A DNA stretch of 64,000 nucleotides from Strigamia acuminata (GCA_949358305.1 OX442314.1:28954001-29018000), one strand, 5' to 3'; positions 11,057-59,800 are shown, counted from the stretch's first letter. Numbers and translations: made by a program. The notes: generated by a model not told the origin, from the sequence alone.

Positions 11057-11083
11057 GATTGAATAGCAATTATACGATTGCAG

Positions 11084-28979: not shown

Positions 28980-28993
28980 GCGCCCTCTAGTGG
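28980..28993 (-). promoter_or_regulatory. CTCF-consensus site in the element-3 LTR (second copy at 33461-33474)
   Basis: CCACTAGAGGGCGC on the - strand. Confidence 0.55.
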
Positions 28994-29116
28994 CGGTATA
29001 TACATTTAATCGAGTCATCACTATATCACATCCCTTCCCCCTTACAATGACATAAATTATTTCATAATAAATTCGAAATCTGTATCACAATCAATAATAA
29101 AATATAGCAATCAAGT

Positions 29117-32100: not shown

Positions 32101-33226
32101 TCATCCATCCCAACAATGGTAGTGGCTCTGTCGCTCCGTACGGCAAAAGTCGAACATCACTCCATCTTAATTCTGGCGCCGGCGTCAATTGTTTAAACAC
32201 CTCCCTGCTCAAAATGTCAACAGACGTGCCCGAATCCACCACGAACGACACCTTCACCTTCCGCTTCCCCATCAGCAGCTCCACCCTCGGCATTTCCTTC
32301 TGCGAGCCAACCAAACCAATATTCCAAATTGGCACATCATCATCCAAGATGTCCTCTCGAGATGGCGCTTTATTCATGATATTAACCTTCTGTTTCACTT
32401 CCTCTTTGCCGTCCTGTTTGGATTTACAAAATCGAACGAAATGCCCGACTCTCCCGCACCCGTGGCATTTAACCGTTTTCGCGGGGCAATTCTGTCCTTC
32501 CAAATGCGGCCAATTCCGACCACAATTAAAGCATCTCCTAGCTGGTCCACCTCCTCTCGATGCTGCACCTGCGCCACCACCCCTATCTGTTCCACGTCTA
32601 GAATTGCCAAAACGTACCAAATTAATGTCTAATTCATCCGAATTACTCACGACCTCCATTTGTTTGGCCTGCCACTCGGAAGTTTCATAACCACGACCTG
32701 CATCCAATAAGTCCTTCAACACCCATGCTGTCTCTCGAAGCCCTCGACGACGTAAATGGCCCATCATCGTTCCCATGATGATTTGAGATTTAATTTCCGC
32801 ACTATCGTCCGTAAAATCGCATCCGACTGACAGTTGTTTCAAACGTGTATGAAATTCGTCTATCGTCTCGCCCGCCCTCTGGCGACTCATCCGAAAATTA
32901 TATTTACAAAATTCGACGTTCTTCCTCGGTGCAAAATACGTCGCTAATGCGTCTTTGACCGTCTTATATTTAGCGTCCGCCAACGTGAGTGTTTCGTATA
33001 TCGCGTACACCTCCTCACCGGCATGATGGAGTAACATCGCCGCCCTTCTCGCATCGTCCGTTATTCCCGCGGCGACTAAATACATCTCCAAACGTCCGAC
33101 CCACCTTGTCCATCTCTGGCTCTGTGTTGTCACTTCCCCATGAATATCAAAACTCGGTAAACCCGACGCTTGCACGAAACTAGCCGGTCCCGGTGCCACG
33201 CCCACCACTGGCTTCGACTCCGCCAT
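29117..33226 (-). CDS. gag-pol: Single-frame Gag-Pol polyprotein of element 3 (1369 aa)
   Basis: Two Cys/His knuckles (CFNC..H..C; CHGCGRVGHFVRFC), VVDSGT, IMDD, TVDAG, HRGHQG..CVPC, MDFLGP/SDNG/NGEVER. Confidence 0.96.
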   Translation of the reverse strand: MAESKPVVGVAPGPASFVQASGLPSFDIHGEVTTQSQRWTRWVGRLEMYLVAAGITDDARRAAMLLHHAGEEVYAIYETLTLADAKYKTVKDALATYFAPRKNVEFCKYNFRMSRQRAGETIDEFHTRLKQLSVGCDFTDDSAEIKSQIIMGTMMGHLRRRGLRETAWVLKDLLDAGRGYETSEWQAKQMEVVSNSDELDINLVRFGNSRRGTDRGGGAGAASRGGGPARRCFNCGRNWPHLEGQNCPAKTVKCHGCGRVGHFVRFCKSKQDGKEEVKQKVNIMNKAPSREDILDDDVPIWNIGLVGSQKEMPRVELLMGKRKVKVSFVVDSGTSVDILSREVFKQLTPAPELRWSDVRLLPYGATEPLPLLGWMRTTLGGRDKEEVVTDLFVVDRKGESLLSYATARRLGVIGAVNSVEQGNLATQIEEQYPELFRGIGKLAGRQVHLHVDESVPPVAQRYRPLPFNLRRKVEKELMRLVEMDIIERVDESMGPTSWISPIHVVDKPKDPDPDAIRICMDAREVNRAIKRVRHTSPRLEDLISMAEGATIFSKLDLNHGFHQLELDEVSRQFMVFATHVGLFRFKRLGFGVNSAPEIFQDSVEKVIEEVDNTINIMDDIFVVGKRDKDHGEALHGVLRKLKEKRLTLNKQKCEFGKKELIFFGHVFSERGIAVDPKKVEAVVKMETPTSAAEVKSLLGMIVYCARFVRNMADKTKSLRDLTRKSAVFAWKPEHQSAWEYVKRELSNNEILAYYDSTAKIHLTVDAGPHGLGAILAQLREGEAEPRVVAYASRALTDVETRYSQIEKETLAVVWSVEHFYLYLYGTVFVIFTDHKPLVSIFSNRRARPSARIERLCLRIQQYEFEVKHTSGATNPSDYLSRHPGSRLSLTEKVVERYVNFVVETRMPTTMTREEVIRETRADEVLQLLRKALHGEGEKPWQEERLKPFMMIRDEITSTGDGVLLRGDRILIPESLRSRVVELAHRGHQGVVKTKNLLREKVWFPGLDKRVERRIAQCVPCQASLVVSRREPLQMSVLPERPWQRLAMDFLGPFPDGRLLLVMVDEYSRFPFVDEVNSTAARTIIPILEKRFSELGIPESVKSDNGPPFTSEEIRVFMSGFGIQHRRVTPLWPEANGEVERMMRTLNKAILTAVTEGRVWSKEIHEFLLNYRATPHSTTGVAPAKLLYQRALQTRLPQNFGKVNDDGVRQRDEKGKEKMKLEADGRRRVCSHGLTVGDQVLVKRRKTNKLMTPYDPELMTVVKVEGSRITAKRGQYQVVRNSSFFKKMEQDVEDGEFDEPGGGEMELSVSEEEEERGAREEPQQLDDVQPIVQQAVEQQQQSVIPERTRPIRERREPDRYTNAKASEKRK

Positions 33227-33313
33227 CTTGGAAAAAATTCAAACGCACCGATGTTCACACAAAATCGTAACTCACACGTTCAATCGTCCGTCAAACGTTC
33301 TCCACACGAAATT

Positions 33314-33329: not shown

Positions 33330-34984
33330 ATGTAATGTCGCTATGAATGTCCGGATGTCAATAAAGCACGCACACACTTTCATTCAATACTTGATTCCTA
33401 TCTGACTCTTTATTTCAGCTTCATCACCTTTATACTCTCGGTCACCTTCATCACAACCTCGCGCCCTCTAGTGGCGGTATATACATTTAATCGAGTCATC
33501 ACTATATCACAGCAGCTGAGACACACGAAACGATTATAGAGCGCCAAATGTTCTCGCTTTCAGCTTTGATCAGTGAAATTGGTGGAACCCTCGGTCTATA
33601 CCTTGGCGTAAGCGTTTTCACAATTGTTGATCTCATTAGCTTTCTTGCCCAACTTTCAGTTTCCAAGTTTAAACATTTTATAATATATCAAGATTAATAC
33701 CGCTTCTGTTAAGCCTTCAGTAAGCCACATAAAAGTCAATCTCTGCACTATAAGCATTGATACAAATAAGAACCAAAACCGGTTCAGATTAACGTGTAAG
33801 ACCAATTATTTTTAGCAATAACTGAAGTTGTTAATGTGATTAATGTGAGTAATACAGTAGCATTATTGTACACTAAATTTTACTTAAAGTTTTCTGACAA
33901 GAGAAAAAACTTAGTTATTGCCTGCATATCTGTTTGTCTCCCAGGTTCAAAATGTCTACTGACAGGGAAAAGCATCTTAGAAAAATTTATCCTACCATAT
34001 TATCAGTGTTTATTATTGATTGTTACAATCTGTCAGGTTCAATTGTTAGATTAACATAGTTTAAAATTGTGTTAGCTATAGCAATGGGTTTAGTGTTTAG
34101 TATATTTAACGCATACTGCCCAGAATAACCGCTGAAGACGTTCTGTGCAGGTACCAATAAATTATGCTTGAGTTGAGAAACCTTGTGTGATGTGTCTATT
34201 TATTATTCTGTGCATGTTTAACCACTTGTTTAACCAGTCTACCCCAAGGGTGATGAAATGGATAAACGATCTTACCTTTTGTGTCGCTTTTCACTAAGAG
34301 CAATGCTAAATCGACATCGCCATACATTGATTTAAACATGTTAAGTTTTTAATCAACTAAGCATGACCCCCTAGATAGTCATTAGATTGAGAATATCAAA
34401 TTGGGTGTTTAATCTCAAAATCGATTTAGACTGAAAAGGATTTATTCAAATTAAAATCACAGGTTGCATACTAAGTTATCATCCATATTGGAGTCATCAT
34501 CCAATAGACATGATCCCTAGATCCAAAAACCAAGTCGACAGTACAACTTGGGCAATTACTAGACCACTGGGCTCCAGATATAATAAAAAAGACTCCAGAC
34601 CCAAAAGAAATTCAGGACCGGCTCAACTCAAGATAGGATTGAGTGGTGCTACCGCACAAGGCGCCAAAACAAAAAGGATGCAAAAATTCATTCATAAGCA
34701 TTGAAAACGATGTTTGTGCATGGAGAGCCAAGACAATGCCCAATATGACACCCAACAAAATGATTTAAGTTCTCTTCCTCGAAGTAATCCAAAAGATACG
34801 AAATGTTTTTCTCGAGTCTCCATTTCTTCGCTTATTTGCTGAAAAGTTAATGTTAATTTGAACTTTTAGCTTTGTAAAGTCACATTTACAAAGATTGTAG
34901 ATTTTTGTTTTAATCAGCAACTTTAAAAAATTAAAAAGACAATTTACAATAAACGCACACAATAACTTTACAATTTTTAAATTT

Positions 34985-38564: not shown

Positions 38565-38725
38565 TTTCTATCTTCTGGGGCGTGGATAAATGCCGGAAAG
38601 GTGTTCGCCGTTTTCTATCTTTTGGGGCGTGGATAAGTACCAGAAAGGTGTTCGCTAATTTTTTGTTTTGGGGCGTGGATTAGAAAAAACCAAAATATAA
38701 CCGCTAATTTGATCTTTTGGGGCGC
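38565..38725 (+). repeat. 3-4 imperfect direct repeats with GGGGCGTGG GC-boxes immediately upstream of gag
   Basis: TTCTATCTT(C/T)TGGGGCGTGGATAA..GAAAGGTGTTCGC at ~50-bp spacing. Confidence 0.7.
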
Positions 38726-38741
38726 TGAGATACAGATACGC

Positions 38742-39638
38742 ATGGACCCGTTCTCGGGCGATCGCACGGCGGCAAGGACGTTTCTCATCCAGCTGAGATC
38801 GAATCTGTCCTTCGCCGAGCTGCAGCTCGATTATGTGGCTAGGCGTTTCTTGTCGAGATTTTTTACAGGTGACGCCCTATCTTGGTGGCAATCGACGATG
38901 CCCGTGAAAACGTGGGATGAGTTTGAAGTCGCCTTCCAGACCCGGTTCGCACCCTCCGACAGCCAACTACTCGCGAAAGTAGTATCCATCAAGCAGGCGA
39001 AGGATGTGACGGCTTTGCAGATTTGGACGGACCTGGACGCGTTGTTTAACCAGATGCAGGTGCCGATAGCGGATGAGTATAAAATTAATTATGCTTTGGC
39101 AGCTATGACCCCGGAAACGTGCACTATGGCAGCGAGCACCTTGGCATGGGATCACTCCTGGCTAGGATTGAAGCGCTCCTGTGTACGTTTCGCCCCGGCA
39201 GCTTTGGCAATGGAAAGGTTCCGTGACCCGGCCAGTGTAATCATACCTCATTGGCATTCACCACCGGCCCAGGCGTTGCCGAAGTTTGCTGACCTGAAAA
39301 GCGGAGATAGAACGCGGAGTTGGTTGAAGCCTCCGACGGGTAAGCCTGTGGCGACTCCTGGTGGGAAGCTTACGGAAACCCCAAAGGCGGCTGCGACCCG
39401 ACCCGCGTCTAACCTGCTGAAGGATCATGCGATCGCACCTACTGGCGCAGGTTGTTGGCATTGTGGCGGACCGCATTTTGAGCGTCAGTGCACGATCAAA
39501 CACAAACTCGCCGGTAAGGCTGCTGAACGCGTGGCCCACCTAACTGAGGAACTGGCGAAAGCTGTGTTCTTCACGAAAGGTATAACCGAAGAAAAGACTG
39601 AGTCGGAAAACGAGCTGGAGCAGGCTCCGGAGGATTAA
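38742..39638 (+). CDS. gag: Gag of element 4 (~298 aa)
   Basis: MDPFSGD..FTGDALSWW..TWDEFEVAFQTRF; CWHCGGPHFERQC knuckle. Confidence 0.85.
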   Translation: MDPFSGDRTAARTFLIQLRSNLSFAELQLDYVARRFLSRFFTGDALSWWQSTMPVKTWDEFEVAFQTRFAPSDSQLLAKVVSIKQAKDVTALQIWTDLDALFNQMQVPIADEYKINYALAAMTPETCTMAASTLAWDHSWLGLKRSCVRFAPAALAMERFRDPASVIIPHWHSPPAQALPKFADLKSGDRTRSWLKPPTGKPVATPGGKLTETPKAAATRPASNLLKDHAIAPTGAGCWHCGGPHFERQCTIKHKLAGKAAERVAHLTEELAKAVFFTKGITEEKTESENELEQAPED

Positions 39639-40402
39639 TTTCATCCGAGGCCTGCGAGCAAGCCGCTTCCTTCTTAGCACCCAGTGGGACTGATTTGGAT
39701 GATGATATCTTTGCAGACTTCTCACCTTCAGAACCACACCCCTTCTCGGGACTTCCCGAGGTTGAGGTATTCGATATAGTACACGTTGCTGTCAGGGATT
39801 GGAATTGCCCTCTTCCCTACATCAATGTTTGCTTGAACGGCCATGAGACAAAAGCTTTGGTTGACTGCGGCGCAACTGGTCCTTATATCAGCAGCGCTAT
39901 GGCCGACAGGTTTAATCTCATGCACCTGATTGAACCCTGTAAGAATCCTATTAGGGTTATGACTGGTGACAGAGTGACGAGCCCAATTGGAATACTCGAG
40001 TTGCTTCTGTGCTGGAGAACTGGGAGTCAAAAGATCCGTTTCCCGGTGTTACCCTCTAGTTCGTGTTTCATCCTCCTCGGGTGCAACTGGATTAAGGGGA
40101 ACAACATCGTGATTAGATTGCCCCGGAATGATTGGTTTCACCTTGATAATCCGGAGGAGACATTTCCTTTTGACCCCCAACCATATAGAGTAGACTTAGC
40201 GGTCCCTGTCGTGGACCAGTGGGAGCTCGCCGAATCCGCACGGATAGATGGCGAATCTGCTGGGCCTACGCTCGCGGAATGTTTAACCTTTTCGCGGATT
40301 GGCTTCCGCGAAATCCGCATTTTGGGGGTGACTATTCTGGGAATTCCGGGTGGACCATACTCTTCCGAAAAATGTCCGGGGTGGTGTTGGGAGTGTCGAT
40401 AG
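39605..40402 (+). pseudogene. Truncated pol of element 4: aspartic protease only, entered by -1 frameshift
   Basis: G_GAA_AAC at 39605-39611, then GCAGGC/GCCTGC stem; ALVDCGATG and ILLGCNW motifs; similarity is lost before RT. Confidence 0.8.
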
Positions 40403-41744
40403 ACTGTTTTGTGTCAAGGTTGCCAATTTTCATGTAAGTATTGGAAGGTTCATTTCTGTGCATTCTCATATATTTTTTTCACAGGAGCAACGAGGCGCGA
40501 TGAAGGGGGATCAAGCGAGAGTGAATAAAATAAACTCGTTTTTGTCTCAAATGCGCGTTTGCGTTTGTAAATTTGGTTGTCTTGCAACGCGGTGGCGCGT
40601 TTGAGTTTCGTGTTGCGATACAAACACGCACGGGTGCGTATTGGAGTCGTAAACGACTTTCTGTCGCAATGCGATCGCGTATTTGACAAATTTCTGCAGA
40701 TTTTTGCCAATATTTGACAATTTTCAGACAAATTTCAATTAATTTTAGAAATTTTTGAGAGATTTCAATAAAAGTTTGAGGAATTTCTTATGCTGACGCT
40801 AAAATGCCAAAAGGAGTCTTAACTCAGAAGAGCACTTTTCCGACCACTTAGGTGTCGGAAAAGCACTTCCAAAGGTCGCAAAATGTGCTCTACGCGTTTT
40901 TTGACACTAGAACGGTCGAAAACGAGTCTAAAACTGCTAAGCTGGCGCCTGTAACTTGGCGCATTCGCTGGGTCGCTCGAAAATGAGATTCGAGCAAACC
41001 GAAACCTATGAGAGAAACGCGCCGGCGGAAATATTCGTTTTTACCAATGAATACTTAATAAATCTTCATGGGAATTTAATCCCAATCTACTGTAGGCTTA
41101 GGAACCTTGAATACCAAATAAAAACAAAGGAGCAAAGGCGGGAAACAAAGAACAAGGGCCCGACGCCCGTAAATCACCAAAATGGCTATCTGCCAGACAC
41201 GCTAGTGGCCTTGAGCCACTTCTAACTTCGTTTTCGAGGTCGTGGGTCTCGAAAACGACTAAACCGAGTGGTGGGAACGATTCCCGAGGTCTTTTTAGTC
41301 AATGTCGCCCAAAACCCGAATCAACAAGCTAACTTTCAACGAGAAACGAAGACTGGAGCCGAATGCGGTGATAAGCGCTCATTCCAGACTCGTGTAAGCG
41401 ATCTCCGCTTAAAGCCAGTTGCTCTGAGCAGACGACGCAATCGCTTACCAAGGAAAAAGACGGGTTTATGGGCTCAAAACCCGACGAAACACTTAAACAG
41501 GATCCAGAAATTACCAAGCGAGTTGGTAAGCTAAACTAAAACTGTAAAATAAGTTGGGGACTTGGTAAAATGCGAGTCTCTCAAACTTTTGTTGCGTCCT
41601 GCTCGCAACACGCGCGATGTACGCGCGTGGCCGCGTGTTGAACGTGCGCACTACGCGCAAGAACCGTACAAACCGAGGTAAAACGAATTAAACACATATC
41701 TAATGCAAAAACAATTATTAAATACATCATTCTTGTTGCTGTTT

Positions 41745-44581
41745 GCAAACTTGCAAAACTTGCACCGAATTTGGGCAATTTTTTACAAATTTCAGCAGAT
41801 TTTTGTCTATATTTGACAAATTTCAGCAGATTTTTGTCTATATTTGACAAATTTCAGCAGATTTCCTCAATCCTCAAACATTTGCTGATATTTCTCAAAC
41901 ATTTTCTAAAATTAATTGAAATCTGTCTGAAATTTGTCTTGAATGTGTCAAATATTGTCAAAAATCCGTGGAAATTTGTCAAATACTGGCAAAAATCCAT
42001 GTAAATTTGTCAAAAATTGCCATAATTCGGTGCAAATTGTGTTAGATATTGGAAAAATTTATTTTAACGCTTCCAACGCGCCAGTAAATCGCGCGTGCAC
42101 ACGCGTGGATTTTTCGTCATAGTTGGATGCGCGCAAACCTCACGTAACTTGCGCCAAAATTTGGCAATTTTTGACAAATTTCAGCAGATTTTTGCCAGTA
42201 TTTGACAAATTTCCACTGATTTTTGACAATATTTGACCCAACAACTGCGCCACGTTCCAGGCGCCGGTTTAGGCATTTTAGACCCGTTTTAGACCGTTTT
42301 AGATGGCGAAAACGTTCTCTCCATCATTTTCTACCCCTGGGTGAGGTTTTCAGCGTTCATGATTGATGAAAAAGCTGTTTTCTAACTAGCTGTCCCATTG
42401 CTAGTTTTGGCGTCAGGTTTTAGCAACCTTCCGATCCGACTCTGTCGTCTGCACGACCTCCAAGACCGTTTTAGGGTTAATTTGAGTCAAATAATTCATT
42501 CTGGGGGTTGTTTTGGGTTTTTTACAAGTGTGTTTTTGTAGTTTTTATTGGTTTCAAACATTGTCAATTCTTTATACAAGTGTAACTTTCATTTCTCTGT
42601 ATTTTGAGAACTTTGCATTGCAGCAAAGTTCATTTCTTGCCCCTTAATTATTGTGTAATTGTTGGTTTTCAAGCCCGTTTTTTAACAATAACTTTATTTG
42701 AAGTGCCTATTGTTTCAGGCACGTGCTTCCACGTGCCTTTTATTGTTGAGCAATTTCTTGGGCAGTTGCGCTCCTGTTGCTAGCATTGCCGCGCGTTCTC
42801 CGCGCGCGTACTCGCGTTTCGCATCACACACATTCGGATTCGATGGCCTATCGCGGCGGCACATTGTGTGGCATAGCGCGGCAGGTTGCAATTGCTAATG
42901 CTACGGTCGACGGCGATTCGCATGCGCTATCCGCTGCATCAAACCCCAAATACCGATCAAAAATCGCAGAAAACACTAATCCCGACCCAAAAACCGCCAA
43001 AATTACCCTCAACACACGCCAACAACCTTCCACCACTTAAATTACACCGGAAAAAAACAATTTCAAACCGAAAAATCAACAAAAAAGGCCAAAAAAATAT
43101 TGCAAACAAAGAGAAAAGATCAATTATCGAGGCAAATCCCCACCACAAAACAACGCATCGCCGGTATACACTTAAGCGTACAGTGCACAACACTACTGTT
43201 TATTTTCAATGATCCAATAAATAAAATTTGAAACAAAGTTGAGTGGAATTGTACGTTTCTTGTATATTAAAGTTTTTATTTTGTTTGTTTACACTTAATT
43301 TTTTTTTTCCATCATAGAATGGCGACTCGATACTTTTGTAGCTCGAATTCACTTCGTAAACGTGGTCGGTGTTCATCACGCGTCAATGCGCTCGTGCAAT
43401 AGTATAGGCGCGCATACGATTTGATGCGCGCAAAACTTGCAAAACTTGCACGGAATTTGGGCAATTTTTGACAAATTTCAGCAGATTTTTGCCTGTATTT
43501 GACAAATTTCAGAAGATTTTTGCCTATATTTGACAAATTTCAGAAGATTTCCTCAATCCTCAAACATTTGCTGAAATTTCTCATAAAATTTCTAAAATTA
43601 ATTGAAATTTGTCTGAAATTTGTCTGGAATTTGTCAAATATTGTCAAAAATCCGTGGAAATTTGTCAAATACTGGCAAAAATCCATGTAAATTTGTCAAA
43701 AATTGCCATAATTCGGTGCAAATTGTGTTAGATATTGGAAAAATTTATTTTAACGCTTCCAACGCGCCAGTAAATCGCGCGTGCACACGCATGGATTTTT
43801 TGTCATAGTTGGATGCGCGCAAACCTCACGTAACTTGCGCCAAAATTTGGCAATTTTTGACAAATTTCAGCAGATTTTTGCCAGTATTTGACAAATTTCC
43901 ACTGATTTTTGACAATATTTGACCCAACAACTGCGCCACGTTCCAGGCGCCGGTTTAGGCATTTTAGACCCGTTTTAGACCGTTTTAGATGGCGAAAACG
44001 TTCTCTCCATCATTTTCTACCCCTGGGTGAGGTTTTCAGCGTTCATAATTGATGAAAAAGCTGTTTTCTAACTAGCTGTCCCATTGCTAGTTTTGGCGTC
44101 AGGTTTTAGCAACCTTCCGATCCGACTCTGTCGTCTGCACGACCTCCAAGACTGTTTTAGGGTTAATTTGAGTCAAATAATTCATTCTGGGTGTTGTTTT
44201 GGGTTTTTTACAAGTGTGTTTTTGTAGTTTTTATTGGTTTCAAACATTGTCAATTCTTTATACAAGTGTAACTTTCATTTCTCTGTATTTTGAGAACTTT
44301 GCATTGCAGCAAAGTTCATTTCTTGCCCCTTAATTATTGTGTAATTGTTGGTTTTCAAGCCCGTTTTTTAACAATAACTTTATTTGAAGTGCCTATTGTT
44401 TCAGGCACGTGCTTCCACGTGCCTTTTATTGTTGAGCAATTTCTTGGGCAGTTGCGCTCCTGTTGCTAGCATTGCCGCGCGTTCTCCGCGCGCGTACTCG
44501 CGCGTTTCGCATCACACACATTCGGGTTCAATGGCCTATCGCGGCGGCACATTGTGTGGCATAGCGCGGCACGTTGCAATT
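41745..44581. repeat. Left arm: ~1.7 copies of the 1.68-kb unit, inverted relative to the right array
   Basis: Period 1686 (41755 vs 43441; 42698 vs 44384); outer copy truncated and more diverged. Confidence 0.93.
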
Positions 44582-44699
44582 ACGTGACGTGGCACGTTGC
44601 TGTTACGTGACGCGATAGCCAGTATTTAAGCAGGGGATTCCATCATCGTTTACACAAATGCGCATTGCAACGTGGAGGCGCATTCGAGTCCTTTTCCCA

Positions 44700-45368
44700 A
44701 GCGTTGAAAAAGGACAAAACTCGTATTCGATTCGAAAGCGAATCGAATACGATTTTTGTCCTTTTTCAACGCAAAATTGTATTCGATTCGCTTTCGAATC
44801 GAATACGAGTTTTGCCCTTCTTCAACGCGAAATCGTATTCGACTCGCTTTCGAGTCGAATGCGAATTTTTCCCTTCTTCAACGCGAAATCGTATTCGACT
44901 CGTTTTCGAGTCGAGTACGAGTTTTGCCCTTCTTCAACGCGAAATCGTATTCGACTCGTTTTCGAGTCGAATACGAGTTTTGCCCTTCTTCAACGCGAAA
45001 TCGTATTCGACTCTTTTCGAGTCGAGTACGAGTTTTGCCCTTCTTCAACGCGAAATCGTATTCGACTCGTTTTCGAGTCGAGTACGAGTTTTGCCCTTCT
45101 TCAACGCGAAATCGTATTCGACTCGTTTTCGAGTCGAATACGAGTTTTGCCCTTCTTCAACGCGAAATCGTATTCGACTCGTTTTCGAGTCGAGTACGAG
45201 TTTTGCCCTTCTTCAACGCGAAATCGTATTCGACTCGTTTTCGAGTCGAATACGAGTTTTGCCCTTCTTCAACGCGAAATCGTATTCGACTCGTTTTCGA
45301 GTCGAGTACGAGTTTTGTCCTTCTTCAACGCGAAATCGTATTCGACTCGTTTTCGAGTCGAATACGAG
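44700..45368. repeat. 56-bp tandem array, ~12 units, each with a 14-bp-stem hairpin (mirror copy at ~47036-47705)
   Basis: Unit GAGTTTTGCCCTTCTTCAACGCGAAATCGTATTCGACTCGTTTTCGAGTCGA(A/G)TAC. Confidence 0.95.
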
Positions 45369-45399
45369 ATAGTCGATGACCCGTTCCCGGACTTTGACT

Positions 45400-47005
45400 C
45401 GTACGACTCGTATTCGAGATGTATTCGAGATGTATTCGAGATGTATTCGAATCGTATTCGAGTCGCATTCGAGATGGTCGATGATTTCCACTCGCTCGTA
45501 TACGCGTTGTATACGAGCTCGTATTTTGATCGTAATCGTAAACGAATCGTTTACAAGTCGTATACAAGTTGTATACGACGTGTATACACCTCGTATACGA
45601 ACGAAGTTTGTGAAAACACAATTTCCAAATAAGACGTATGTGACTACTATGTGTTTTCATGTCGTAGTAAGTATCCGGTGGATTTTCCAAACTTCGTTCG
45701 TATACGAGGTGTATACACGTCGTATACAACTTGTATACGACTTGTAAACGATTCGTTTACGATTACGATCAAAATACGAGCTCGTATACAACGCGTATAC
45801 GAGCGAGTGGAAACCATCGACCATCTCGAATGCGACTCGAATACGATTCGAATACATCTCGAATACATCTCGAATACGAGTCGTATACGAGATGGTCGAT
45901 TTTTGTTTCCCGGACTTTGATTCGTATTCGAGTTGTTACGAGTTCGTATTTTGATCGTATTCGTATTCGAATCGAATTCGAATCGTATTCGAATCGAATA
46001 CGAATCGAATTCGAGTCGTATTCGAGATGGTCGATGATTTCCACTCGCTCGTATACGCGTTGTATACGAGCTCGTATTTTGATCGTAATCGTAAACGAAT
46101 CGTTTACAAGTCGTATACAAGTTGTATACGACGTGTATACACCTCGTATACGAACGAAGTTTGTGAAAACACAATTTCCAAATAAGACGTATGTGACTAC
46201 TATGTGTTTTCATGTCGTAGTAAGTATCCGGTGGATTTTCCAAACTTCGTTCGTATACGAGGTGTATACACGTCGTATACAACTTGTATACGACTTGTAA
46301 ACGATTCGTTTACGATTACGATCAAAATACGAGCTCGTATACAACGCGTATACGAGCGAGTGGAAATCATCGACCATCTCGAATGCGACTCGAATACGAT
46401 TCGAATACATCCCGAATACATCTCGAATACGAGTCGTATACGAGATGGTCGATTTTTGTTTCCCGGACTTTGATTCGTATTCGAGTTGTTACGAGTTCGT
46501 ATTTTGATCGTATTCGTATTCGAATCGAATTCGAATCGTATTCGAATCGAATACGAATCGAATTCGAGTCGTATTCGAGATGGTCGATGATTTCCACTCG
46601 CTCGTATACGCGTTGTATACGAGCTCGTATTTTGATCGTAATCGTAAACGAATCGTTTACAAGTCGTATACAAGTTGTATACGACGTGTATACACCTCGT
46701 ATACGAACGAAGTTTGTGAAAACACAATTTCCAAATAAGACGTATGTGACTACTATGTGTTTTCATGTCGTAGTAAGTATCCGGTGGATTTTCCAAACTT
46801 CGTTCGTATACGAGGTGTATACACGTCGTATACAACTTGTATACGACTTGTAAACGATTCGTTTACGATTACGATCAAAATACGAGCTCGTATACAACGC
46901 GTATACGAGCGAGTGGAAATCATCGACCATCTCGAATGCGACTCGAATACGATTCGAATACATCTCGAATACATCTCGAATACATCTCGAATACGAGTCG
47001 TACGA
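45400..47005. repeat. Core: 553-bp period, three hairpin modules (arm - 77-nt spacer - inverted arm)
   Basis: Identical spacers at 45611-45687, 46164-46240 and 46717-46793, all in the same orientation; ORF repeats at 45647/46200/46753. Confidence 0.93.
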
Positions 47006-47823
47006 GTCAAAGTCCGGGAACGGGTCATCGACTATCTCGTATTCGACTCGAAAACGAGTCGAATACGATTTCGCGTTGAAGAAGGGCAAAACTCGTACTC
47101 GACTCGAAAACGAGTCGAATACGATTTCGCGTTGAAGAAGGGCAAAACTCGTATTCGACTCGAAAACGAGTCGAATACGATTTCGCGTTGAAGAAGGGCA
47201 AAACTCGTACTCGACTCGAAAACGAGTCGAATACGATTTCGCGTTGAAGAAGGGCAAAACTCGTATTCGACTCGAAAACGAGTCGAATACGATTTCGCGT
47301 TGAAGAAGGGCAAAACTCGTACTCGACTCGAAAACGAGTCGAATACGATTTCGCGTTGAAGAAGGGCAAAACTCGTACTCGACTCGAAAACGAGTCGAAT
47401 ACGATTTCGCGTTGAAGAAGGGCAAAACTCGTATTCGACTCGAAAACGAGTCGAATACGATTTCGCGTTGAAGAAGGGCAAAACTCGTACTCGACTCGAA
47501 AACGAGTCGAATACGATTTCGCGTTGAAGAAGGGAAAAATTCGCATTCGACTCGAAAGCGAGTCGAATACGATTTCGCGTTGAAGAAGGGCAAAACTCGT
47601 ATTCGATTCGAAAGCGAATCGAATACAATTTTGCGTTGAAAAAGGACAAAAATCGTATTCGATTCGCTTTCGAATCGAATACGAGTTTTGTCCTTTTTCA
47701 ACGCTTGGGAAAAGGACTCGAATGCGCCTCCACGTTGCAATGCGCATTTGTGTAAACGATGATGGAATCCCCTGCTTAAATACTGGCTATCGCGTCACGT
47801 AACAGCAACGTGCCACGTCACGT

Positions 47824-50800
47824 AATTGCAACGTGCCGCGCTATGCCACACAATGTGCCGCCGCGATAGGCCATTGAACCCGAATGTGTGTGATGCGAAA
47901 CGCGCGAGTACGCGCGCGGAGAACGCGCGGCAATGCTAGCAACAGGAGCGCAACTGCCCAAGAAATTGCTCAACAATAAAAGGCACGTGGAAGCACGTGC
48001 CTGAAACAATAGGCACTTCAAATAAAGTTATTGTTAAAAAACGGGCTTGAAAACCAACAATTACACAATAATTAAGGGGCAAGAAATGAACTTTGCTGCA
48101 ATGCAAAGTTCTCAAAATACAGAGAAATGAAAGTTACACTTGTATAAAGAATTGACAATGTTTGAAACCAATAAAAACTACAAAAACACACTTGTAAAAA
48201 ACCCAAAACAACACCCAGAATGAATTATTTGACTCAAATTAACCCTAAAACAGTCTTGGAGGTCGTGCAGACGACAGAGTCGGATCGGAAGGTTGCTAAA
48301 ACCTGACGCCAAAACTAGCAATGGGACAGCTAGTTAGAAAACAGCTTTTTCATCAATTATGAACGCTGAAAACCTCACCCAGGGGTAGAAAATGATGGAG
48401 AGAACGTTTTCGCCATCTAAAACGGTCTAAAACGGGTCTAAAATGCCTAAACCGGCGCCTGGAACGTGGCGCAGTTGTTGGGTCAAATATTGTCAAAAAT
48501 CAGTGGAAATTTGTCAAATACTGGCAAAAATCTGCTGAAATTTGTCAAAAATTGCCAAATTTTGGCGCAAGTTACGTGAGGTTTGCGCGCATCCAACTAT
48601 GACAAAAAATCCATGCGTGTGCACGCGCGATTTACTGGCGCGTTGGAAGCGTTAAAATAAATTTTTCCAATATCTAACACAATTTGCACCGAATTATGGC
48701 AATTTTTGACAAATTTACATGGATTTTTGCCAGTATTTGACAAATTTCCACGGATTTTTGACAATATTTGACAAATTCCAGACAAATTTCAGACAAATTT
48801 CAATTAATTTTAGAAATTTTATGAGAAATTTCAGCAAATGTTTGAGGATTGAGGAAATCTTCTGAAATTTGTCAAATATAGGCAAAAATCTTCTGAAATT
48901 TGTCAAATACAGGCAAAAATCTGCTGAAATTTGTCAAAAATTGCCCAAATTCCGTGCAAGTTTTGCAAGTTTTGCGCGCATCAAATCGTATGCGCGCCTA
49001 TACTATTGCACGAGCGCATTGACGCGTGATGAACACCGACCACGTTTACGAAGTGAATTCGAGCTACAAAAGTATCGAGTCGCCATTCTATGATGGAAAA
49101 AAAAAATTAAGTGTAAACAAACAAAATAAAAACTTTAATATACAAGAAACGTACAATTCCACTCAACTTTGTTTCAAATTTTATTTATTGGATCATTGAA
49201 AATAAACAGTAGTGTTGTGCACTGTACGCTTAAGTGTATACCGGCGATGCGTTGTTTTGTGGTGGGGATTTGCCTCGATAATTGATCTTTTCTCTTTGTT
49301 TGCAATATTTTTTTGGCCTTTTTTGTTGATTTTTCGGTTTGAAATTGTTTTTTTCCGGTGTAATTTAAGTGGTGGAAGGTTGTTGGCGTGTGTTGAGGGT
49401 AATTTTGGCGGTTTTTGGGTCGGGATTAGTGTTTTCTGCGATTTTTGATCGGTATTTGGGGTTTGATGCAGCGGATAGCGCATGCGAATCGCCGTCGACC
49501 GTAGCATTAGCAATTGCAACCTGCCGCGCTATGCCACACAATGTGCCGCCGCGATAGGCCATCGAATCCGAATGTGTGTGATGCGAAACGCGAGTACGCG
49601 CGCGGAGAACGCGCGGCAATGCTAGCAACAGGAGCGCAACTGCCCAAGAAATTGCTCAACAATAAAAGGCACGTGGAAGCACGTGCCTGAAACAATAGGC
49701 ACTTCAAATAAAGTTATTGTTAAAAAACGGGCTTGAAAACCAACAATTACACAATAATTAAGGGGCAAGAAATGAACTTTGCTGCAATGCAAAGTTCTCA
49801 AAATACAGAGAAATGAAAGTTACACTTGTATAAAGAATTGACAATGTTTGAAACCAATAAAAACTACAAAAACACACTTGTAAAAAACCCAAAACAACCC
49901 CCAGAATGAATTATTTGACTCAAATTAACCCTAAAACGGTCTTGGAGGTCGTGCAGACGACAGAGTCGGATCGGAAGGTTGCTAAAACCTGACGCCAAAA
50001 CTAGCAATGGGACAGCTAGTTAGAAAACAGCTTTTTCATCAATCATGAACGCTGAAAACCTCACCCAGGGGTAGAAAATGATGGAGAGAACGTTTTCGCC
50101 ATCTAAAACGGTCTAAAACGGGTCTAAAATGCCTAAACCGGCACCTGGAACGTGGCGCAGTTGTTGGGTCAAATATTGTCAAAAATCAGTGGAAATTTGT
50201 CAAATACTGGCAAAAATCTGCTGAAATTTGTCAAAAATTGCCAAATTTTGGCGCAAGTTACGTGAGGTTTGCGCGCATCCAACTATGACGAAAAATCCAT
50301 GCGTGTGCACGCGCGATTTACTGGCGCGTTGGAAGCGTTAAAATAAATTTTTCCAATATCTAACACAATTTGCACCGAATTATGGCAATTTTTGACAAAT
50401 TTACATGGATTTTTGCCAGTATTTGACAAATTTCCACGGATTTTTGACAATATTTGACAAATTCCAGACAAATTTCAGACAAATTTCAATTAATTTTTGA
50501 AATTTTATGAGAAATTTCAGCAAATGTTTGAGGATTGAGGAAATCTTCTGAAATTTGTCAAATATAGGCAAAAATCTTCTGAAATTTGTCAAATACAGGC
50601 AAAAATCTGCTGAAATTTGTCAAAAATTGCCCAAATTCCGTGCAAGTTTTGCAAGTTTTGCGCGCATCAAATCGTATGCGCGCCTATACTATTGCACGAG
50701 CGCATTGACGCGTGATGAACACCGACCACGTTTACGAAGTGAATTCGAGCTACAAAAGTATCGAGTCGCCATTCTATGATGGAAAAAAAAAATTAAGTGT

Positions 50801-53800
50801 AAACAAACAAAATAAAAACTTTAATATACAAGAAACGTACAATTCCACTCAACTTTGTTTCAAATTTTATTTATTGGATCATTGAAAATAAACAGTAGTG
50901 TTGTGCACTGTACGCTTAAGTGTATACCGGCGATGCGTTGTTTTGTGGTGGGGATTTGCCTCGATAATTGATCTTTTCTCTTTGTTTGCAATATTTTTTT
51001 GGCCTTTTTTGTTGATTTTTCGGTTTGAAATTGTTTTTTTCCGGTGTAATTTAAGTGGTGGAAGGTTGTTGGCGTGTGTTGAGGGTAATTTTGGCGGTTT
51101 TTGGGTCGGGATTAGTGTTTTCTGCGATTTTTTATCGGTATTTGGGGTTTGATGCAGCGGATAGCGCATGCGAAACGCCGTCGACCGTAGCATTAGCAAT
51201 TGCAACGTGCCGCGCTATGCCACACAATGTGCCGCCGCGATATGCCATCGAATCCGAATGTGTGTGATGCGAAACGCGAGTACGCGCGCGGAGAACGCGC
51301 GGCAATGCTAGCAACAGGAGCGCAACTGCCCAAGAAATTGCTCAACAATAAAAGGCACGTGCCTGAAACAATAGGCACTTCAAATAAAGTTATTGTTAAA
51401 AAATGGGCCTGAAAACCAACAATTACACAATAATTAAGGGGCAAGAAATGAACTTTGCTGCAATGCAAAGTTCTCAAAATACAGAGAAATGAAAGTTACA
51501 CTTGTATAAAGAATTGACAATGTTTGAAACCAATAAAAACTACAAAAACACACTTGTAAAAAACCCAAAACAACCCCCAGAATGAATTATTTGACTCAAA
51601 TTAACCCTAAAACGGTCTTGGAGGTCGTGCAGACGACAGAGTCGGATCGGAAGGTTGCTAAAACCTGACGCCAAAACTAGCAATGGGACAGCTAGTTAGA
51701 AAACAGCTTTTTCATCAATCATGAACGCTGAAAACCTCACCCAGGGGTAGAAAATGATGGAGAGAACGTTTTCGCCATCTAAAACGGTCTAAAACGGGTC
51801 TAAAATGCCTAAACCGGCGCCTGGAACGTGGCGCAGTTGTTGGGTCAAATATTGTCAAAAATCAGTGGAAATTTGTCAAATACTGGCAAAAATCTGCTGA
51901 AATTTGTCAAAAATTGCCAAATTTTGGCGCAAGTTACGTGAGGTTTGCGCGCATCCAACTATGACGAAAAATCCATGCGTGTGCACGCGCGATTTACTGG
52001 CGCGTTGGAAGCGTTAAAATAAATTTTTCCAATATCTAACACAATTTGCACCGAATTATGGCAATTTTTGACAAATTTACATGGATTTTTGCCAGTATTT
52101 GACAAATTTCCACGGATTTTTGACAATATTTGACAAATTCCAGACAAATTTCAGACAAATTTCAATTAATTTTTGAAATTTTATGAGAAATTTCAGCAAA
52201 TGTTTGAGGATTGAGGAAATCTTCTGAAATTTGTCAAATATAGGCAAAAATCTTCTGAAATTTGTCAAATACAGGCAAAAATCTGCTGAAATTTGTCAAA
52301 AATTGCCCAAATTCCGTGCAAGTTTTGCAAGTTTTGCGCGCATCAAATCGTATGCGCGCCTATACTATTGCACGAGCGCATTGACGCGTGATGAACACCG
52401 ACCACGTTTACGAAGTGAATTCGAGCTACAAAAGTATCGAGTCGCCATTCTATGATGGAAAAAAAAAATTAAGTGTAAACAAACAAAATAAAAACTTTAA
52501 TATACAAGAAACGTACAATTCCACTCAACTTTGTTTCAAATTTTATTTATTGGATCATTGAAAATAAACAGTAGTGTTGTGCACTGTACGCTTAAGTGTA
52601 TACCGGCGATGCGTTGTTTTGTGGTGGGGATTTGCCTCGATAATTGATCTTTTCTCTTTGTTTGCAATATTTTTTTGGCCTTTTTTGTTGATTTTTCGGT
52701 TTGAAATTGTTTTTTTCCGGTGTAATTTAAGTGGTGGAAGGTTGTTGGCGTGTGTTGAGGGTAATTTTGGCGGTTTTTGGGTCGGGATTAGTGTTTTCTG
52801 CGATTTTTTATCGGTATTTGGGGTTTGATGCAGCGGATAGCGCATGCGAATCGCCGTCGACCGTAGCATTAGCAATTGCAACGTGCCGCGCTATGCCACA
52901 CAATGTGCCGCCGCGATATGCCATCGAATCCGAATGTGTGTGATGCGAAACGCGAGTACGCGCGCGGAGAACGCGCGGCAATGCTAGCAACAGGAGCGCA
53001 ACTGCCCAAGAAATTGCTCAACAATAAAAGGCACGTGCCTGAAACAATAGGCACTTCAAATAAAGTTATTGTTAAAAAACGGGCTTGAAAACCAACAATT
53101 ACACAATAATTAAGGGGCAAGAAATGAACTTTGCTGCAATGCAAAGTTCTCAAAATACAGAGAAATGAAAGTTACACTTGTATAAAGAATTGACAATGTT
53201 TGAAACCAATAAAAACTACAAAAACACACTTGTAAAAAACCCAAAACAACCCCCAGAATGAATTATTTGACTCAAATTAACCCTAAAACGGTCTTGGAGG
53301 TCGTGCAGACGACAGAGTCGGATCGGAAGGTTGCTAAAACCTGACGCCAAAACTAGCAATGGGACAGCTAGTTAGAAAACAGCTTTTTCATCAATCATGA
53401 ACGCTGAAAACCTCACCCAGGGGTAGAAAATGATGGAGAGAACGTTTTCGCCATCTAAAACGGTCTAAAACGGGTCTAAAATGCCTAAACCGGCGCCTGG
53501 AACGTGGCGCAGTTGTTGGGTCAAATATTGTCAAAAATCAGTGGAAATTTGTCAAATACTGGCAAAAATCTGCTGAAATTTGTCAAAAATTGCCAAATTT
53601 TGGCGCAAGTTACGTGAGGTTTGCGCGCATCCAACTATGACGAAAAATCCATGCGTGTGCACGCGCGATTTACTGGCGCGTTGGAAGCGTTAAAATAAAT
53701 TTTTCCAATATCTAACACAATTTGCACCGAATTATGGCAATTTTTGACAAATTTACATGGATTTTTGCCAGTATTTGACAAATTTCCACGGATTTTTGAC

Positions 53801-56800
53801 AATATTTGACAAATTCCAGACAAATTTCAGACAAATTTCAATTAATTTTTGAAATTTTATGAGAAATTTCAGCAAATGTTTGAGGATTGAGGAAATCTTC
53901 TGAAATTTGTCAAATATAGGCAAAAATCTTCTGAAATTTGTCAAATACAGGCAAAAATCTGCTGAAATTTGTCAAAAATTGCCCAAATTCCGTGCAAGTT
54001 TTGCAAGTTTTGCGCGCATCAAATCGTATGCGCGCCTATACTATTGCACGAGCGCATTGACGCGTGATGAACACCGACCACGTTTACGAAGTGAATTCGA
54101 GCTACAAAAGTATCGAGTCGCCATTCTATGATGGAAAAAAAAAATTAAGTGTAAACAAACAAAATAAAAACTTTAATATACAAGAAACGTACAATTCCAC
54201 TCAACTTTGTTTCAAATTTTATTTATTGGATCATTGAAAATAAACAGTAGTGTTGTGCACTGTACGCTTAAGTGTATACCGGCGATGCGTTGTTTTGTGG
54301 TGGGGATTTGCCTCGATAATTGATCTTTTCTCTTTGTTTGCAATATTTTTTTGGCCTTTTTTGTTGATTTTTCGGTTTGAAATTGTTTTTTTCCGGTGTA
54401 ATTTAAGTGGTGGAAGGTTGTTGGCGTGTGTTGAGGGTAATTTTGGCGGTTTTTGGGTCGGGATTAGTGTTTTCTGCGATTTTTTATCGGTATTTGGGGT
54501 TTGATGCAGCGGATAGCGCATGCGAATCGCCGTCGACCGTAGCATTAGCAATTGCAACGTGCCGCGCTATGCCGCACAATGTGCCGCCGCGATATGCCAT
54601 CGAATCCGAATGTGTGTGATGCGAAACGCGAGTACGCGCGCGGAGAACGCGCGGCAATGCTAGCAACAGGAGCGCAACTGCCCAAGAAATTGCTCAACAA
54701 TAAAAGGCACGTGGAAGCACGTGCCTGAAACAATAGGCACTTCAAATAAAGTTATTGTTAAAAAACGGGCTTGAAAACCAACAATTACACAATAATTAAG
54801 GGGCAAGAAATGAACTTTGCTGCAATGCAAAGTTCTCAAAATACAGAGAAATGAAAGTTACACTTGTATAAAGAATTGACAATGTTTGAAACCAATAAAA
54901 ACTACAAAAACACACTTGTAAAAAACCCAAAACAACCCCCAGAATGAATTATTTGACTCAAATTAACCCTAAAACGGTCTTGGAGGTCGTGCAGACGACA
55001 GAGTCGGATCGGAAGGTTGCTAAAACCTGACGCCAAAACTAGCAATGGGACAGCTAGTTAGAAAACAGCTTTTTCATCAATCATGAACGCTGAAAACCTC
55101 ACCCAGGGGTAGAAAATGATGGAGAGAACGTTTTCGCCATCTAAAACGGTCTAAAACGGGTCTAAAATGCCTAAACCGGCACCTGGAACGTGGCGCAGTT
55201 GTTGGGTCAAATATTGTCAAAAATCAGTGGAAATTTGTCAAATACTGGCAAAAATCTGCTGAAATTTGTCAAAAATTGCCAAATTTTGGCGCAAGTTACG
55301 TGAGGTTTGCGCGCATCCAACTATGACGAAAAATCCATGCGTGTGCACGCGCGATTTACTGGCGCGTTGGAAGCGTTAAAATAAATTTTTCCAATATCTA
55401 ACACAATTTGCACCGAATTATGGCAATTTTTGACAAATTTACATGGATTTTTGCCAGTATTTGACAAATTTCCACGGATTTTTGACAATATTTGACAAAT
55501 TCCAGACAAATTTCAGACAAATTTCAATTAATTTTTGAAATTTTATGAGAAATTTCAGCAAATGTTTGAGGATTGAGGAAATCTTCTGAAATTTGTCAAA
55601 TATAGGCAAAAATCTTCTGAAATTTGTCAAATACAGGCAAAAATCTGCTGAAATTTGTCAAAAATTGCCCAAATTCCGTGCAAGTTTTGCAAGTTTTGCG
55701 CGCATCAAATCGTATGCGCGCCTATACTATTGCACGAGCGCATTGACGCGTGATGAACACCGACCACGTTTACGAAGTGAATTCGAGCTACAAAAGTATC
55801 GAGTCGCCATTCTATGATGGAAAAAAAAAATTAAGTGTAAACAAACAAAATAAAAACTTTAATATACAAGAAACGTACAATTCCACTCAACTTTGTTTCA
55901 AATTTTATTTATTGGATCATTGAAAATAAACAGTAGTGTTGTGCACTGTACGCTTAAGTGTATACCGGCGATGCGTTGTTTTGTGGTGGGGATTTGCCTC
56001 GATAATTGATCTTTTCTCTTTGTTTGCAATATTTTTTTGGCCTTTTTTGTTGATTTTTCGGTTTGAAATTGTTTTTTTCCGGTGTAATTTAAGTGGTGGA
56101 AGGTTGTTGGCGTGTGTTGAGGGTAATTTTGGCGGTTTTTGGGTCGGGATTAGTGTTTTCTGCGATTTTTTATCGGTATTTGGGGTTTGATGCAGCGGAT
56201 AGCGCATGCGAATCGCCGTCGACCGTAGCATTAGCAATTGCAACGTGCCGCGCTATGCCGCACAATGTGCCGCCGCGATATGCCATCGAATCCGAATGTG
56301 TGTGATGCGAAACGCGAGTACGCGCGCGGAGAACGCGCGGCAATGCTAGCAACAGGAGCGCAACTGCCCAAGAAATTGCTCAACAATAAAAGGCACGTGG
56401 AAGCACGTGCCTGAAACAATAGGCACTTCAAATAAAGTTATTGTTAAAAAACGGGCTTGAAAACCAACAATTACACAATAATTAAGGGGCAAGAAATGAA
56501 CTTTGCTGCAATGCAAAGTTCTCAAAATACAGAGAAATGAAAGTTACACTTGTATAAAGAATTGACAATGTTTGAAACCAATAAAAACTACAAAAACACA
56601 CTTGTAAAAAACCCAAAACAACCCCCAGAATGAATTATTTGACTCAAATTAACCCTAAAACGGTCTTGGAGGTCGTGCAGACGACAGAGTCGGATCGGAA
56701 GGTTGCTAAAACCTGACGCCAAAACTAGCAATGGGACAGCTAGTTAGAAAACAGCTTTTTCATCAATCATGAACGCTGAAAACCTCACCCAGGGGTAGAA

Positions 56801-59800
56801 AATGATGGAGAGAACGTTTTCGCCATCTAAAACGGTCTAAAACGGGTCTAAAATGCCTAAACCGGCACCTGGAACGTGGCGCAGTTGTTGGGTCAAATAT
56901 TGTCAAAAATCAGTGGAAATTTGTCAAATACTGGCAAAAATCTGCTGAAATTTGTCAAAAATTGCCAAATTTTGGCGCAAGTTACGTGAGGTTTGCGCGC
57001 ATCCAACTATGACGAAAAATCCATGCGTGTGCACGCGCGATTTACTGGCGCGTTGGAAGCGTTAAAATAAATTTTTCCAATATCTAACACAATTTGCACC
57101 GAATTATGGCAATTTTTGACAAATTTACATGGATTTTTGCCAGTATTTGACAAATTTCCACGGATTTTTGACAATATTTGACAAATTCCAGACAAATTTC
57201 AGACAAATTTCAATTAATTTTTGAAATTTTATGAGAAATTTCAGCAAATGTTTGAGGATTGAGGAAATCTTCTGAAATTTGTCAAATATAGGCAAAAATC
57301 TTCTGAAATTTGTCAAATACAGGCAAAAATCTGCTGAAATTTGTCAAAAATTGCCCAAATTCCGTGCAAGTTTTGCAAGTTTTGCGCGCATCAAATCGTA
57401 TGCGCGCCTATACTATTGCACGAGCGCATTGACGCGTGATGAACACCGACCACGTTTACGAAGTGAATTCGAGCTACAAAAGTATCGAGTCGCCATTCTA
57501 TGATGGAAAAAAAAAATTAAGTGTAAACAAACAAAATAAAAACTTTAATATACAAGAAACGTACAATTCCACTCAACTTTGTTTCAAATTTTATTTATTG
57601 GATCATTGAAAATAAACAGTAGTGTTGTGCACTGTACGCTTAAGTGTATACCGGCGATGCGTTGTTTTGTGGTGGGGATTTGCCTCGATAATTGATCTTT
57701 TCTCTTTGTTTGCAATATTTTTTTGGCCTTTTTTGTTGATTTTTCGGTTTGAAATTGTTTTTTTCCGGTGTAATTTAAGTGGTGGAAGGTTGTTGGCGTG
57801 TGTTGAGGGTAATTTTGGCGGTTTTTGGGTCGGGATTAGTGTTTTCTGCGATTTTTTATCGGTATTTGGGGTTTGATGCAGCGGATAGCGCATGCGAATC
57901 GCCGTCGACCGTAGCATTAGCAATTGCAACGTGCCGCGCTATGCCACACAATGTGCCGCCGCGATATGCCATCGAATCCGAATGTGTGTGATGCGAAACG
58001 CGAGTACGCGCGCGGAGAACGCGCGGCAATGCTAGCAACAGGAGCGCAACTGCCCAAGAAATTGCTCAACAATAAAAGGCACGTGCCTGAAACAATAGGC
58101 ACTTCAAATAAAGTTATTGTTAAAAAACGGGCTTGAAAACCAACAATTACACAATAATTAAGGGGCAAGAAATGAACTTTGCTGCAATGCAAAGTTCTCA
58201 AAATACAGAGAAATGAAAGTTACACTTGTATAAAGAATTGACAATGTTTGAAACCAATAAAAACTACAAAAACACACTTGTAAAAAACCCAAAACAACCC
58301 CCAGAATGAATTATTTGACTCAAATTAACCCTAAAACGGTCTTGGAGGTCGTGCAGACGACAGAGTCGGATCGGAAGGTTGCTAAAACCTGACGCCAAAA
58401 CTAGCAATGGGACAGCTAGTTAGAAAACAGCTTTTTCATCAATCATGAACGCTGAAAACCTCACCCAGGGGTAGAAAATGATGGAGAGAACGTTTTCGCC
58501 ATCTAAAACGGTCTAAAACGGGTCTAAAATGCCTAAACCGGCGCCTGGAACGTGGCGCAGTTGTTGGGTCAAATATTGTCAAAAATCAGTGGAAATTTGT
58601 CAAATACTGGCAAAAATCTGCTGAAATTTGTCAAAAATTGCCAAATTTTGGCGCAAGTTACGTGAGGTTTGCGCGCATCCAACTATGACGAAAAATCCAT
58701 GCGTGTGCACGCGCGATTTACTGGCGCGTTGGAAGCGTTAAAATAAATTTTTCCAATATCTAACACAATTTGCACCGAATTATGGCAATTTTTGACAAAT
58801 TTACATGGATTTTTGCCAGTATTTGACAAATTTCCACGGATTTTTGACAATATTTGACAAATTCCAGACAAATTTCAGACAAATTTCAATTAATTTTTGA
58901 AATTTTATGAGAAATTTCAGCAAATGTTTGAGGATTGAGGAAATCTTCTGAAATTTGTCAAATATAGGCAAAAATCTTCTGAAATTTGTCAAATACAGGC
59001 AAAAATCTGCTGAAATTTGTCAAAAATTGCCCAAATTCCGTGCAAGTTTTGCAAGTTTTGCGCGCATCAAATCGTATGCGCGCCTATACTATTGCACGAG
59101 CGCATTGACGCGTGATGAACACCGACCACGTTTACGAAGTGAATTCGAGCTACAAAAGTATCGAGTCGCCATTCTATGATGGAAAAAAAAAATTAAGTGT
59201 AAACAAACAAAATAAAAACTTTAATATACAAGAAACGTACAATTCCACTCAACTTTGTTTCAAATTTTATTTATTGGATCATTGAAAATAAACAGTAGTG
59301 TTGTGCACTGTACGCTTAAGTGTATACCGGCGATGCGTTGTTTTGTGGTGGGGATTTGCCTCGATAATTGATCTTTTCTCTTTGTTTGCAATATTTTTTT
59401 GGCCTTTTTTGTTGATTTTTCGGTTTGAAATTGTTTTTTTCCGGTGTAATTTAAGTGGTGGAAGGTTGTTGGCGTGTGTTGAGGGTAATTTTGGCGGTTT
59501 TTGGGTCGGGATTAGTGTTTTCTGCGATTTTTTATCGGTATTTGGGGTTTGATGCAGCGGATAGCGCATGCGAATCGCCGTCGACCGTAGCATTAGCAAT
59601 TGCAACGTGCCGCGCTATGCCGCACAATGTGCCGCCGCGATATGCCATCGAATCCGAATGTGTGTGATGCGAAACGCGAGTACGCGCGCGGAGAACGCGC
59701 GGCAATGCTAGCAACAGGAGCGCAACTGCCCAAGAAATTGCTCAACAATAAAAGGCACGTGGAAGCACGTGCCTGAAACAATAGGCACTTCAAATAAAGT

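Follow-up and report, generated by a model that had tools for sequence, protein, structure and literature searches.

The foldback elements Tetris (PMC4079207) and Galileo (PMC3573991) consist of a middle domain and long inverted repeats that are non-coding and contain tandem repeats, and in Galileo the inverted repeats are extended when repair draws internal sequence into them (PMC3573991). In the current analysis we have characterised a near-perfect inverted repeat in a stretch of 64,000 nucleotides from Strigamia acuminata (GCA_949358305.1, OX442314.1:28954001-29018000; this whole stretch is referred to as the window and is numbered from its first letter). The structure is real and most likely represents a foldback-like internal cassette of a large non-autonomous element, probably of the piggyBac type, which is called the carrier.

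The end motif of piggyBac elements is TTAA followed by CC[C/T]T (PMC2872659, PMC5381638). Pokey contains a length-variable, repeat-rich non-coding region (PMC3849761), and the giant Teratorn has long inverted repeats (PMC6431247). Helentrons of the HINE/DINE-1 group carry a 5' subterminal inverted repeat (subTIR) with a nearby complementary inverted repeat (IR) at TT (PMC4067079, PMC7492417). The cichlid centroids are large non-coding sequences resembling transposable elements, rich in palindromes, that occur as inverted pairs among satellites and are intermittently homogenised (PMC13652916). Known fragile sites include long, near-perfect palindromes whose spacers are short, and fold-back priming at short inverted repeats has been reviewed (PMC7999016). 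The literature searched, which covered few subscription papers, holds no description of an internal palindrome of the present kind in a TTAA element.

We consider it reasonably probable that the near-perfect inverted repeat, built around a hairpin core, lies inside a non-coding element of at least 23.7 kb, likely a multicopy and non-autonomous DNA transposon, and that copying from one arm to the other during repair has likely kept the arms similar and extended them. The contigs of four public sequencing runs have been compared with the window. Runs X1 to X3 belong to one organism (A), come from two studies and hold 75-90% of the sampled words, while X4, from organism B (word share 0.06), gave two contigs at depth 2 or none and was left out, as were X5 to X7, in which the words are almost absent. 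Depth ratios per loop are taken from X2, the cleanest run, only; the contigs of X1 and X3 are fragmented and their depths are apparently capped at 25000. Contig depth is not a copy number, and all depth figures are to be read accordingly.

Mirror symmetry of the arms

Self-BLAST of the window gives a single inverted alignment over 41747-50658. The nested palindrome of about 9 kb proposed in the preliminary description is thus confirmed for the arms, but the central 1.19 kb (45610-46794) is not palindromic. The limits then given, 41745 and 50660, cut through a larger object, since the right array continues to 62961 and the element of high contig depth begins near 40283.

Proceeding outwards from the core, the left arm comprises segment A with stem S (45368-45609, plus strand), which is identical over 242 bp to 46795-47036, and an array of 11.6 56-mers (44721-45367, plus strand; repeat and folding analysis). 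These are followed by an inner unique segment with a TATA-like word towards the centre (44582-44720, plus strand), present once per arm and a 100% mirror of 47685-47823 over its 139 bp. Beyond it lie a full 1.68-kb repeat unit, L1 (42894-44581, minus strand), a partial unit, L2 (41946-42893, minus strand), and an outer, unconverted end with 31-bp repeats (41745-41945, minus strand). In the right arm the stem, segment A, 56-mer array and inner segment occupy 46795-47823 on the minus strand, as seen in the self-alignment, and are followed by the units R1 to R9, whose mirrored portion is limited to R1 and some of R2.

The arms 41946-45609 and 46795-50459 are distinguished by four events in 3,664 bp. 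Two of these fall among the 647 positions of the 56-mer arrays, namely a 1-bp deletion at 45014 and a T/C difference at 45318/47086, both private to the left arm, in accordance with the 1-bp indel near 45013 and the few substitutions noted earlier. The remaining two fall in the 948 bp of L2, and L1 does not differ from R1 over 1688 bp. Fifteen substitutions are confined to the outermost 199 bp of the arms. The divergence of the arms is a step and not a gradient, contrary to the outward rise that had been described.

Eight variant events are common to L1 and R1 and are without counterpart in R2-R9, that is, in all eight other right-hand units. A C at column 10 of the unit is found in L2 and R2 only, and a G at column 1624 in L1, R1 and R9. 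L2 is nearest to R2, with two differences over columns 1-940 as against 4-9 events for the remaining units, and the order of A and G in the mirrored 56-mers agrees in nine cases out of nine (chance 1 in 126). The mirrored private variants of the preliminary description are therefore real. Arm-to-arm conversion, one of the processes suggested for them, fits the contrast between the four internal events and the 15 in the outer block. The nested symmetry is also borne out at smaller scales, each 56-mer containing a 32-bp hairpin with a 14-bp stem (folding z -5.9) and the 553-nt unit of the core folding with a z of -43.9.

TATA-like words at 44620-44650, and in mirror image at 47755-47785, face the hairpin arrays and would be convergent putative promoters if used. 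Across the 56-mers and core (44721-47036) the ratio of observed to expected CpG reaches 2.9, as against 1.1 in the first 40 kb.

The core and its three loops

The non-palindromic centre (45610-46794, plus strand) contains three 79-nt loops, at 45610, 46163 and 46716, joined by stem-spacer-stem segments. It is a direct triplication with a period of 553 bp, in which the loop occurs three times on the plus strand and not at all on the minus strand. The stems closing the loops measure 143 to about 190 bp, and private single-nucleotide polymorphisms (SNPs) are present at 45814 in the first copy and within the second. Three loops of the same orientation bearing private SNPs clash with a plain hairpin-replication junction, which had been among the origins suggested, and equally with a chimera of fold-back reads. 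An outer cruciform, if formed, would carry a spacer of 1.19 kb in the window copy.

The putative left end of the carrier and its coding content

The left end of the carrier is placed at 40283-40311 (plus strand) from contig ends, the rise in depth and folding, and consists of TTAA, CCTTTT and a hairpin with a 9-bp stem. To its left is the host element, a gypsy-type long terminal repeat (LTR) retrotransposon (38637-40282, plus strand) with gag and protease (Pfam Retrotrans_gag and gag-asp_proteas) that is cut off before its reverse transcriptase. No reverse transcriptase follows the truncated protease, since tblastn with the three other gypsy pol proteins of the window finds protease only in 33240-64000. 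Contigs of the gypsy type stop at about 40287 in X1, X2 and X3 (three of the four runs), a junction contig of X1 covers 40216-40309 at depth 264, and the depth climbs in the bin 40251-40367. In a homologue search with the truncated protease frame, limited to longer proteins, no score was obtained for any of 3154 candidates, leaving the boundary without confirmation at the protein level. A 3' LTR of the gypsy element itself was considered for position 40280 and rejected, as it has no upstream copy.

The left flank of the carrier (40287-41744) occurs once in the window, has an even depth on single contigs, and contains an older inverted partial copy of the repeat unit at 40679-40974 (78-83% identity). 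High contig depth thus extends 1.46 kb to the left of the left arm. No right end is met before 64000, and the carrier is therefore at least 23.7 kb long, provided that the right flank belongs to it. None of the 17 longer frames scanned (from 65 listed plus one) passes the Pfam cut-off, weak matches being dismissed as repeat noise, and no DDE_Tnp_1_7 transposase is found among them. Rfam gives no match in 33000-64000, and exact-pattern scans of metagenome contigs, viral contigs and prokaryote genomes return no loci. The carrier is likely a non-coding, multicopy and non-autonomous DNA transposon.

The first 280 bp of the carrier recur, with 17 differences in 191 bp, in a second subfamily that diverges at 40559. 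This subfamily has a depth of 1457 in X2, and its interior motif is absent from the window.

The boundary word TTAA with CCTTTT (40283-40292) agrees with the piggyBac motif, TTAA being followed by CCTT, a motif whose chance occurrence is about 0.002-0.003 per 45-base interval. In comparison with piggyBac-like elements such as Pokey and Teratorn, the carrier shows no transposase or viral genes in the scanned frames, and the window holds no right terminal inverted repeat (TIR) that would complete the paired TIRs of 12-19 bp and the duplicated TTAA expected of such elements.

A different origin is suggested by the hairpin at 40290-40313 (z -2.8). With a TT and, next to it, an inverted repeat of 9 bp whose stems are 6 bases apart, the end also fits the 5' subTIR and IR module of a Helentron, and the carrier could be a non-autonomous, HINE/DINE-1-like Helentron moved by a rolling circle, with the arrays and the palindrome as its central repeats. 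Like the carrier, HINEs have the 5' hairpin by TT, internal tandem arrays and a shared flank with different interiors, the last seen here in the subfamily diverging at 40559 after the common 280 bp. The carrier is, however, much larger, and its cargo is not tandem only but inverted too. A 3' subTIR with its stem-loop is not seen, the search for an inverted copy with at most two mismatches having covered the window downstream of the left end, while the end itself may lie past 64000. The exact CC[C/T]T motif would have to be a coincidence. To our knowledge, Helentrons make no target modification. The host-type contigs match through TTAA and one further base, as a TTAA duplication predicts, and the piggyBac type is therefore favoured; the Helentron origin appears unlikely. 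The end is moderately probable to be of the piggyBac type, and a Helentron type or some other type would each be unlikely to a similar degree.

Comparison with foldback elements and centroids

The assignment to a foldback-type element, also put forward in the preliminary description, holds for part of the features. The locus has long inverted repeats with tandem repeats and is non-coding and, by contig depth, multicopy, and it resembles Tetris and Galileo in the expansion of arrays and the extension of inverted repeats from internal sequence. The arms are 3.9 kb long, however, as against up to 1,735 bp in Tetris and about 1.26 kb in Galileo, and they are internal rather than terminal, with a hairpin array in the middle. 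They are not the termini of an element, having 1.46 kb of high depth on the left and 12 kb of array on the right. Tetris and Galileo have target duplications of 8-10 bp or 7 bp, and none is present at the arm ends here. The best candidate, a direct match of 5 bp from a comparison covering 12 positions on the left and 11 x 13 on the right, lies inside a repeat and was rejected. The pairs of centroids, in turn, are about 200 kb apart at centromeres, whereas the arms here nearly touch and this copy sits in a gypsy element.

Junctions in the public runs

The left-arm junction is found on contigs of three public runs from two studies. A contig of X3 (41575-41814) bridges the end of the left arm with no other letters and at flank depth, from which it follows that the diverged outer block is family-wide, and a contig of X2 that runs from the flank into the unit is shorter by one 31-mer. 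The loop is crossed by an X2 contig, loose ends in X1 tie the stem to the loop at its far end, and the spacer sequence appears as loose ends in the run contigs.

These junctions bear on an assembly artefact, whereby a fold-back chimera, or the mis-collapse of a right-arm copy, would have produced the left arm. Near-identical arms and the lack of a spanning record would be expected of it, and the copy numbers of the arrays (9, 11.6 and 3) could be mis-assembled. The centre is nevertheless asymmetric with private SNPs, both loop ends are connected to the stem, and the left-arm junction and the diverged end recur in runs from two studies. The artefact feared in the preliminary description is largely dispelled by these junctions and by the asymmetric core, but no single contig spans the structure; we regard it as highly improbable.

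Depth and the usual copy of the family

The depth of the left flank on single contigs is 752-804 in X2, 4916-5364 in X3 and 22004 in X1. It is 83 times that of the X1 junction contig and about 35-68 times that of rare joints in X3, and suggests that the larger carrier exists in tens of copies, an estimate left at that order because depth is not a copy number.

In X2 the depths are 1727 for the loop, 3713 for A, 2047-4907 for the stem, 3860 for the unit middle and 3400 for the distal part of the unit, or 2.15, 2.24 and 1.97 per loop for A, unit middle and unit distal respectively. The arm segments are thus about twice as deep as the loop, in keeping with two arms to each loop. The contig of A in X2 shows four other letters, the number expected from one 11-mer fewer. 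The unit middle exceeds the distal part by 460-755, near the flank depth of 780, and this excess fits left arms that are usually partial. On the simplest reading, the usual copy of the family would consist of a single loop between two arms, each arm bearing about one unit, whereas the core and right array of the window copy have expanded.

The palindrome could instead be a one-off, recent inverted duplication of a one-armed repeat family, made by two template switches, one in the diverged 31-bp repeats and the other in the hairpin stem. The 99.9% identity of the arms, the end of the copy in a homologous diverged block of 200 bp, the make-up of the window, which is unlike the X2 average, and the known priming by fold-back at short inverted repeats (PMC7999016) are in keeping with it. 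In X2 and X3, however, the joint between the left flank and the inverted unit has the whole depth of the flank, and the depth of A in X2 is about equal to that of the stem and twice that of the loop, so that this origin is quite unlikely.

Palindromic rDNA centres and viral hr repeats offer a comparison for another origin, in which a palindromic molecule, amplified or extrachromosomal, would have given rise to the chromosomal copy in the window, and its hairpin core would represent either an origin of replication or a hairpin end that has been resolved. It would explain two arms per loop, the arrays of short palindromes and the ratio of flank depth to gypsy depth, which is 13 in X1, 4.5 in X3 and 1.8 in X2, although this spread may reflect library bias. 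The loops are not flip-flopped, Rfam gave no match in 33000-64000, and none of the 17 Pfam-scanned frames passed the cut-off; we hold this origin to be very unlikely.

Several observations weigh against a transposon-borne, copied palindrome as preferred here. Known piggyBac-like elements measure 1.7-8.5 kb (PMC5381638), below the minimum for the carrier, whose left end also suits the Helentron 5' module. A matching right end, and with it a paired TIR or target duplication, is missing from the window to 64000. X1 is possibly the source of the window itself and X3 is of the same study, leaving X2 as the separate one, and no contig of the runs examined spans the whole structure. The ratios, from depths that are not copy numbers, come from the single run X2, and hairpin fragments can be under-sequenced. 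The X2 flank has only 1.8 times the depth of a gypsy contig. From the make-up of the window, 0.67 A, 3.7 unit middles and 3.3 distal parts would be predicted per loop, and X2 differs. In X2 each left flank is also matched by 2.2 loops and by 4.8 A segments, and many cassettes must accordingly lie in other contexts, for which the second subfamily leaving at 40559 may be a candidate.

Proposed origin and significance

Both ancestral end contexts are present in the right array, while in the left arm there is the tandem junction alone, accompanied by the private base of R2 and an exact copy of R1. As both contexts occur on the right side only, the tandem junction would have arisen there, and the left arm, carrying this junction and the private variants of the right array, has likely been lengthened by misaligned arm-to-arm copying. 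The cassette, in a carrier with a presumed piggyBac-type end, may have originated at the hairpin with the 79-nt loop, through fold-back or a template switch, and two arms per loop would be the state of most copies of the family. On the right, microhomology would then have led to a tandem duplication of the 1.68-kb unit and to its expansion to nine units. In the ancestor the left arm would have held a partial unit. It may have paired with R2 in a register shifted by one unit, gaining L1 as R2 and R1 were copied inward during repair. Older inverted copies of 71-83% identity are present in the self-alignment; they show that inversion has recurred and suggest repeated fold-back.

A bolder proposal, possible but doubtful, is that tens of TTAA-ended, non-coding transposons of more than 23 kb each carry an internal, self-repairing palindrome with arms of several kilobases and a 79-bp spacer. 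The genome would then contain and propagate dozens of long near-perfect palindromes built of smaller hairpins, read inward from mirrored putative promoters into long double-stranded RNA.

A mobile family that maintains many palindromes would, if true, be a natural system for the study of arm-to-arm conversion and of palindrome tolerance, and the known size of non-autonomous TTAA elements would be stretched. The window copy records the direction of one copying event. A one-off palindrome would amount to ordinary repeat turnover.

The right array and the repeat unit

The right array (47824-62961, plus strand) contains exactly nine units of 1676-1688 bp, and a short microhomology is common to its start, its tandem junction and its end. 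It is followed by the non-coding right flank (62962-64000) with repeats of 32, 78 and about 10 bp, and the junction between the two is a loose end in X1 and X2.

Every 1.68-kb unit contains an old, MITE-like inverted repeat of about 290 bp (for example 43433-43923) with 71-76% identity and 31-bp repeats, and rearranged relatives are found elsewhere at low depth in X1 and X3. Each unit also has a TTAA-CCCT word (for example at 48239), a possible remnant of a transposon end, at which the contig depth is steady.

The setting of the locus

The window is repeat-rich and eukaryotic, with three long gypsy pol frames, the truncated fourth element and fragments of an amiloride-sensitive channel (ASC), from which an animal host is probable. 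The gypsy-type elements with long gag/pol frames lie on the minus strand at 2899-10157, 16500-23773 and 29117-33238. One of them lies between identical direct repeats of 959 bp (12504-13462 and 23885-24843) and has an extra frame of 770 amino acids (13515-15827) without a Pfam match. The third frame is flanked by direct repeats of 181 bp (28850-29030 and 33331-33511) with 99.4% identity, which are probably short LTRs of a recent insertion. The fragments of DEG/ENaC channel genes (10885-11969, 25889-26434 and 27863-28798) apparently represent two paralogues, with 83% identity over 359 bp, that have been broken by retrotransposons.

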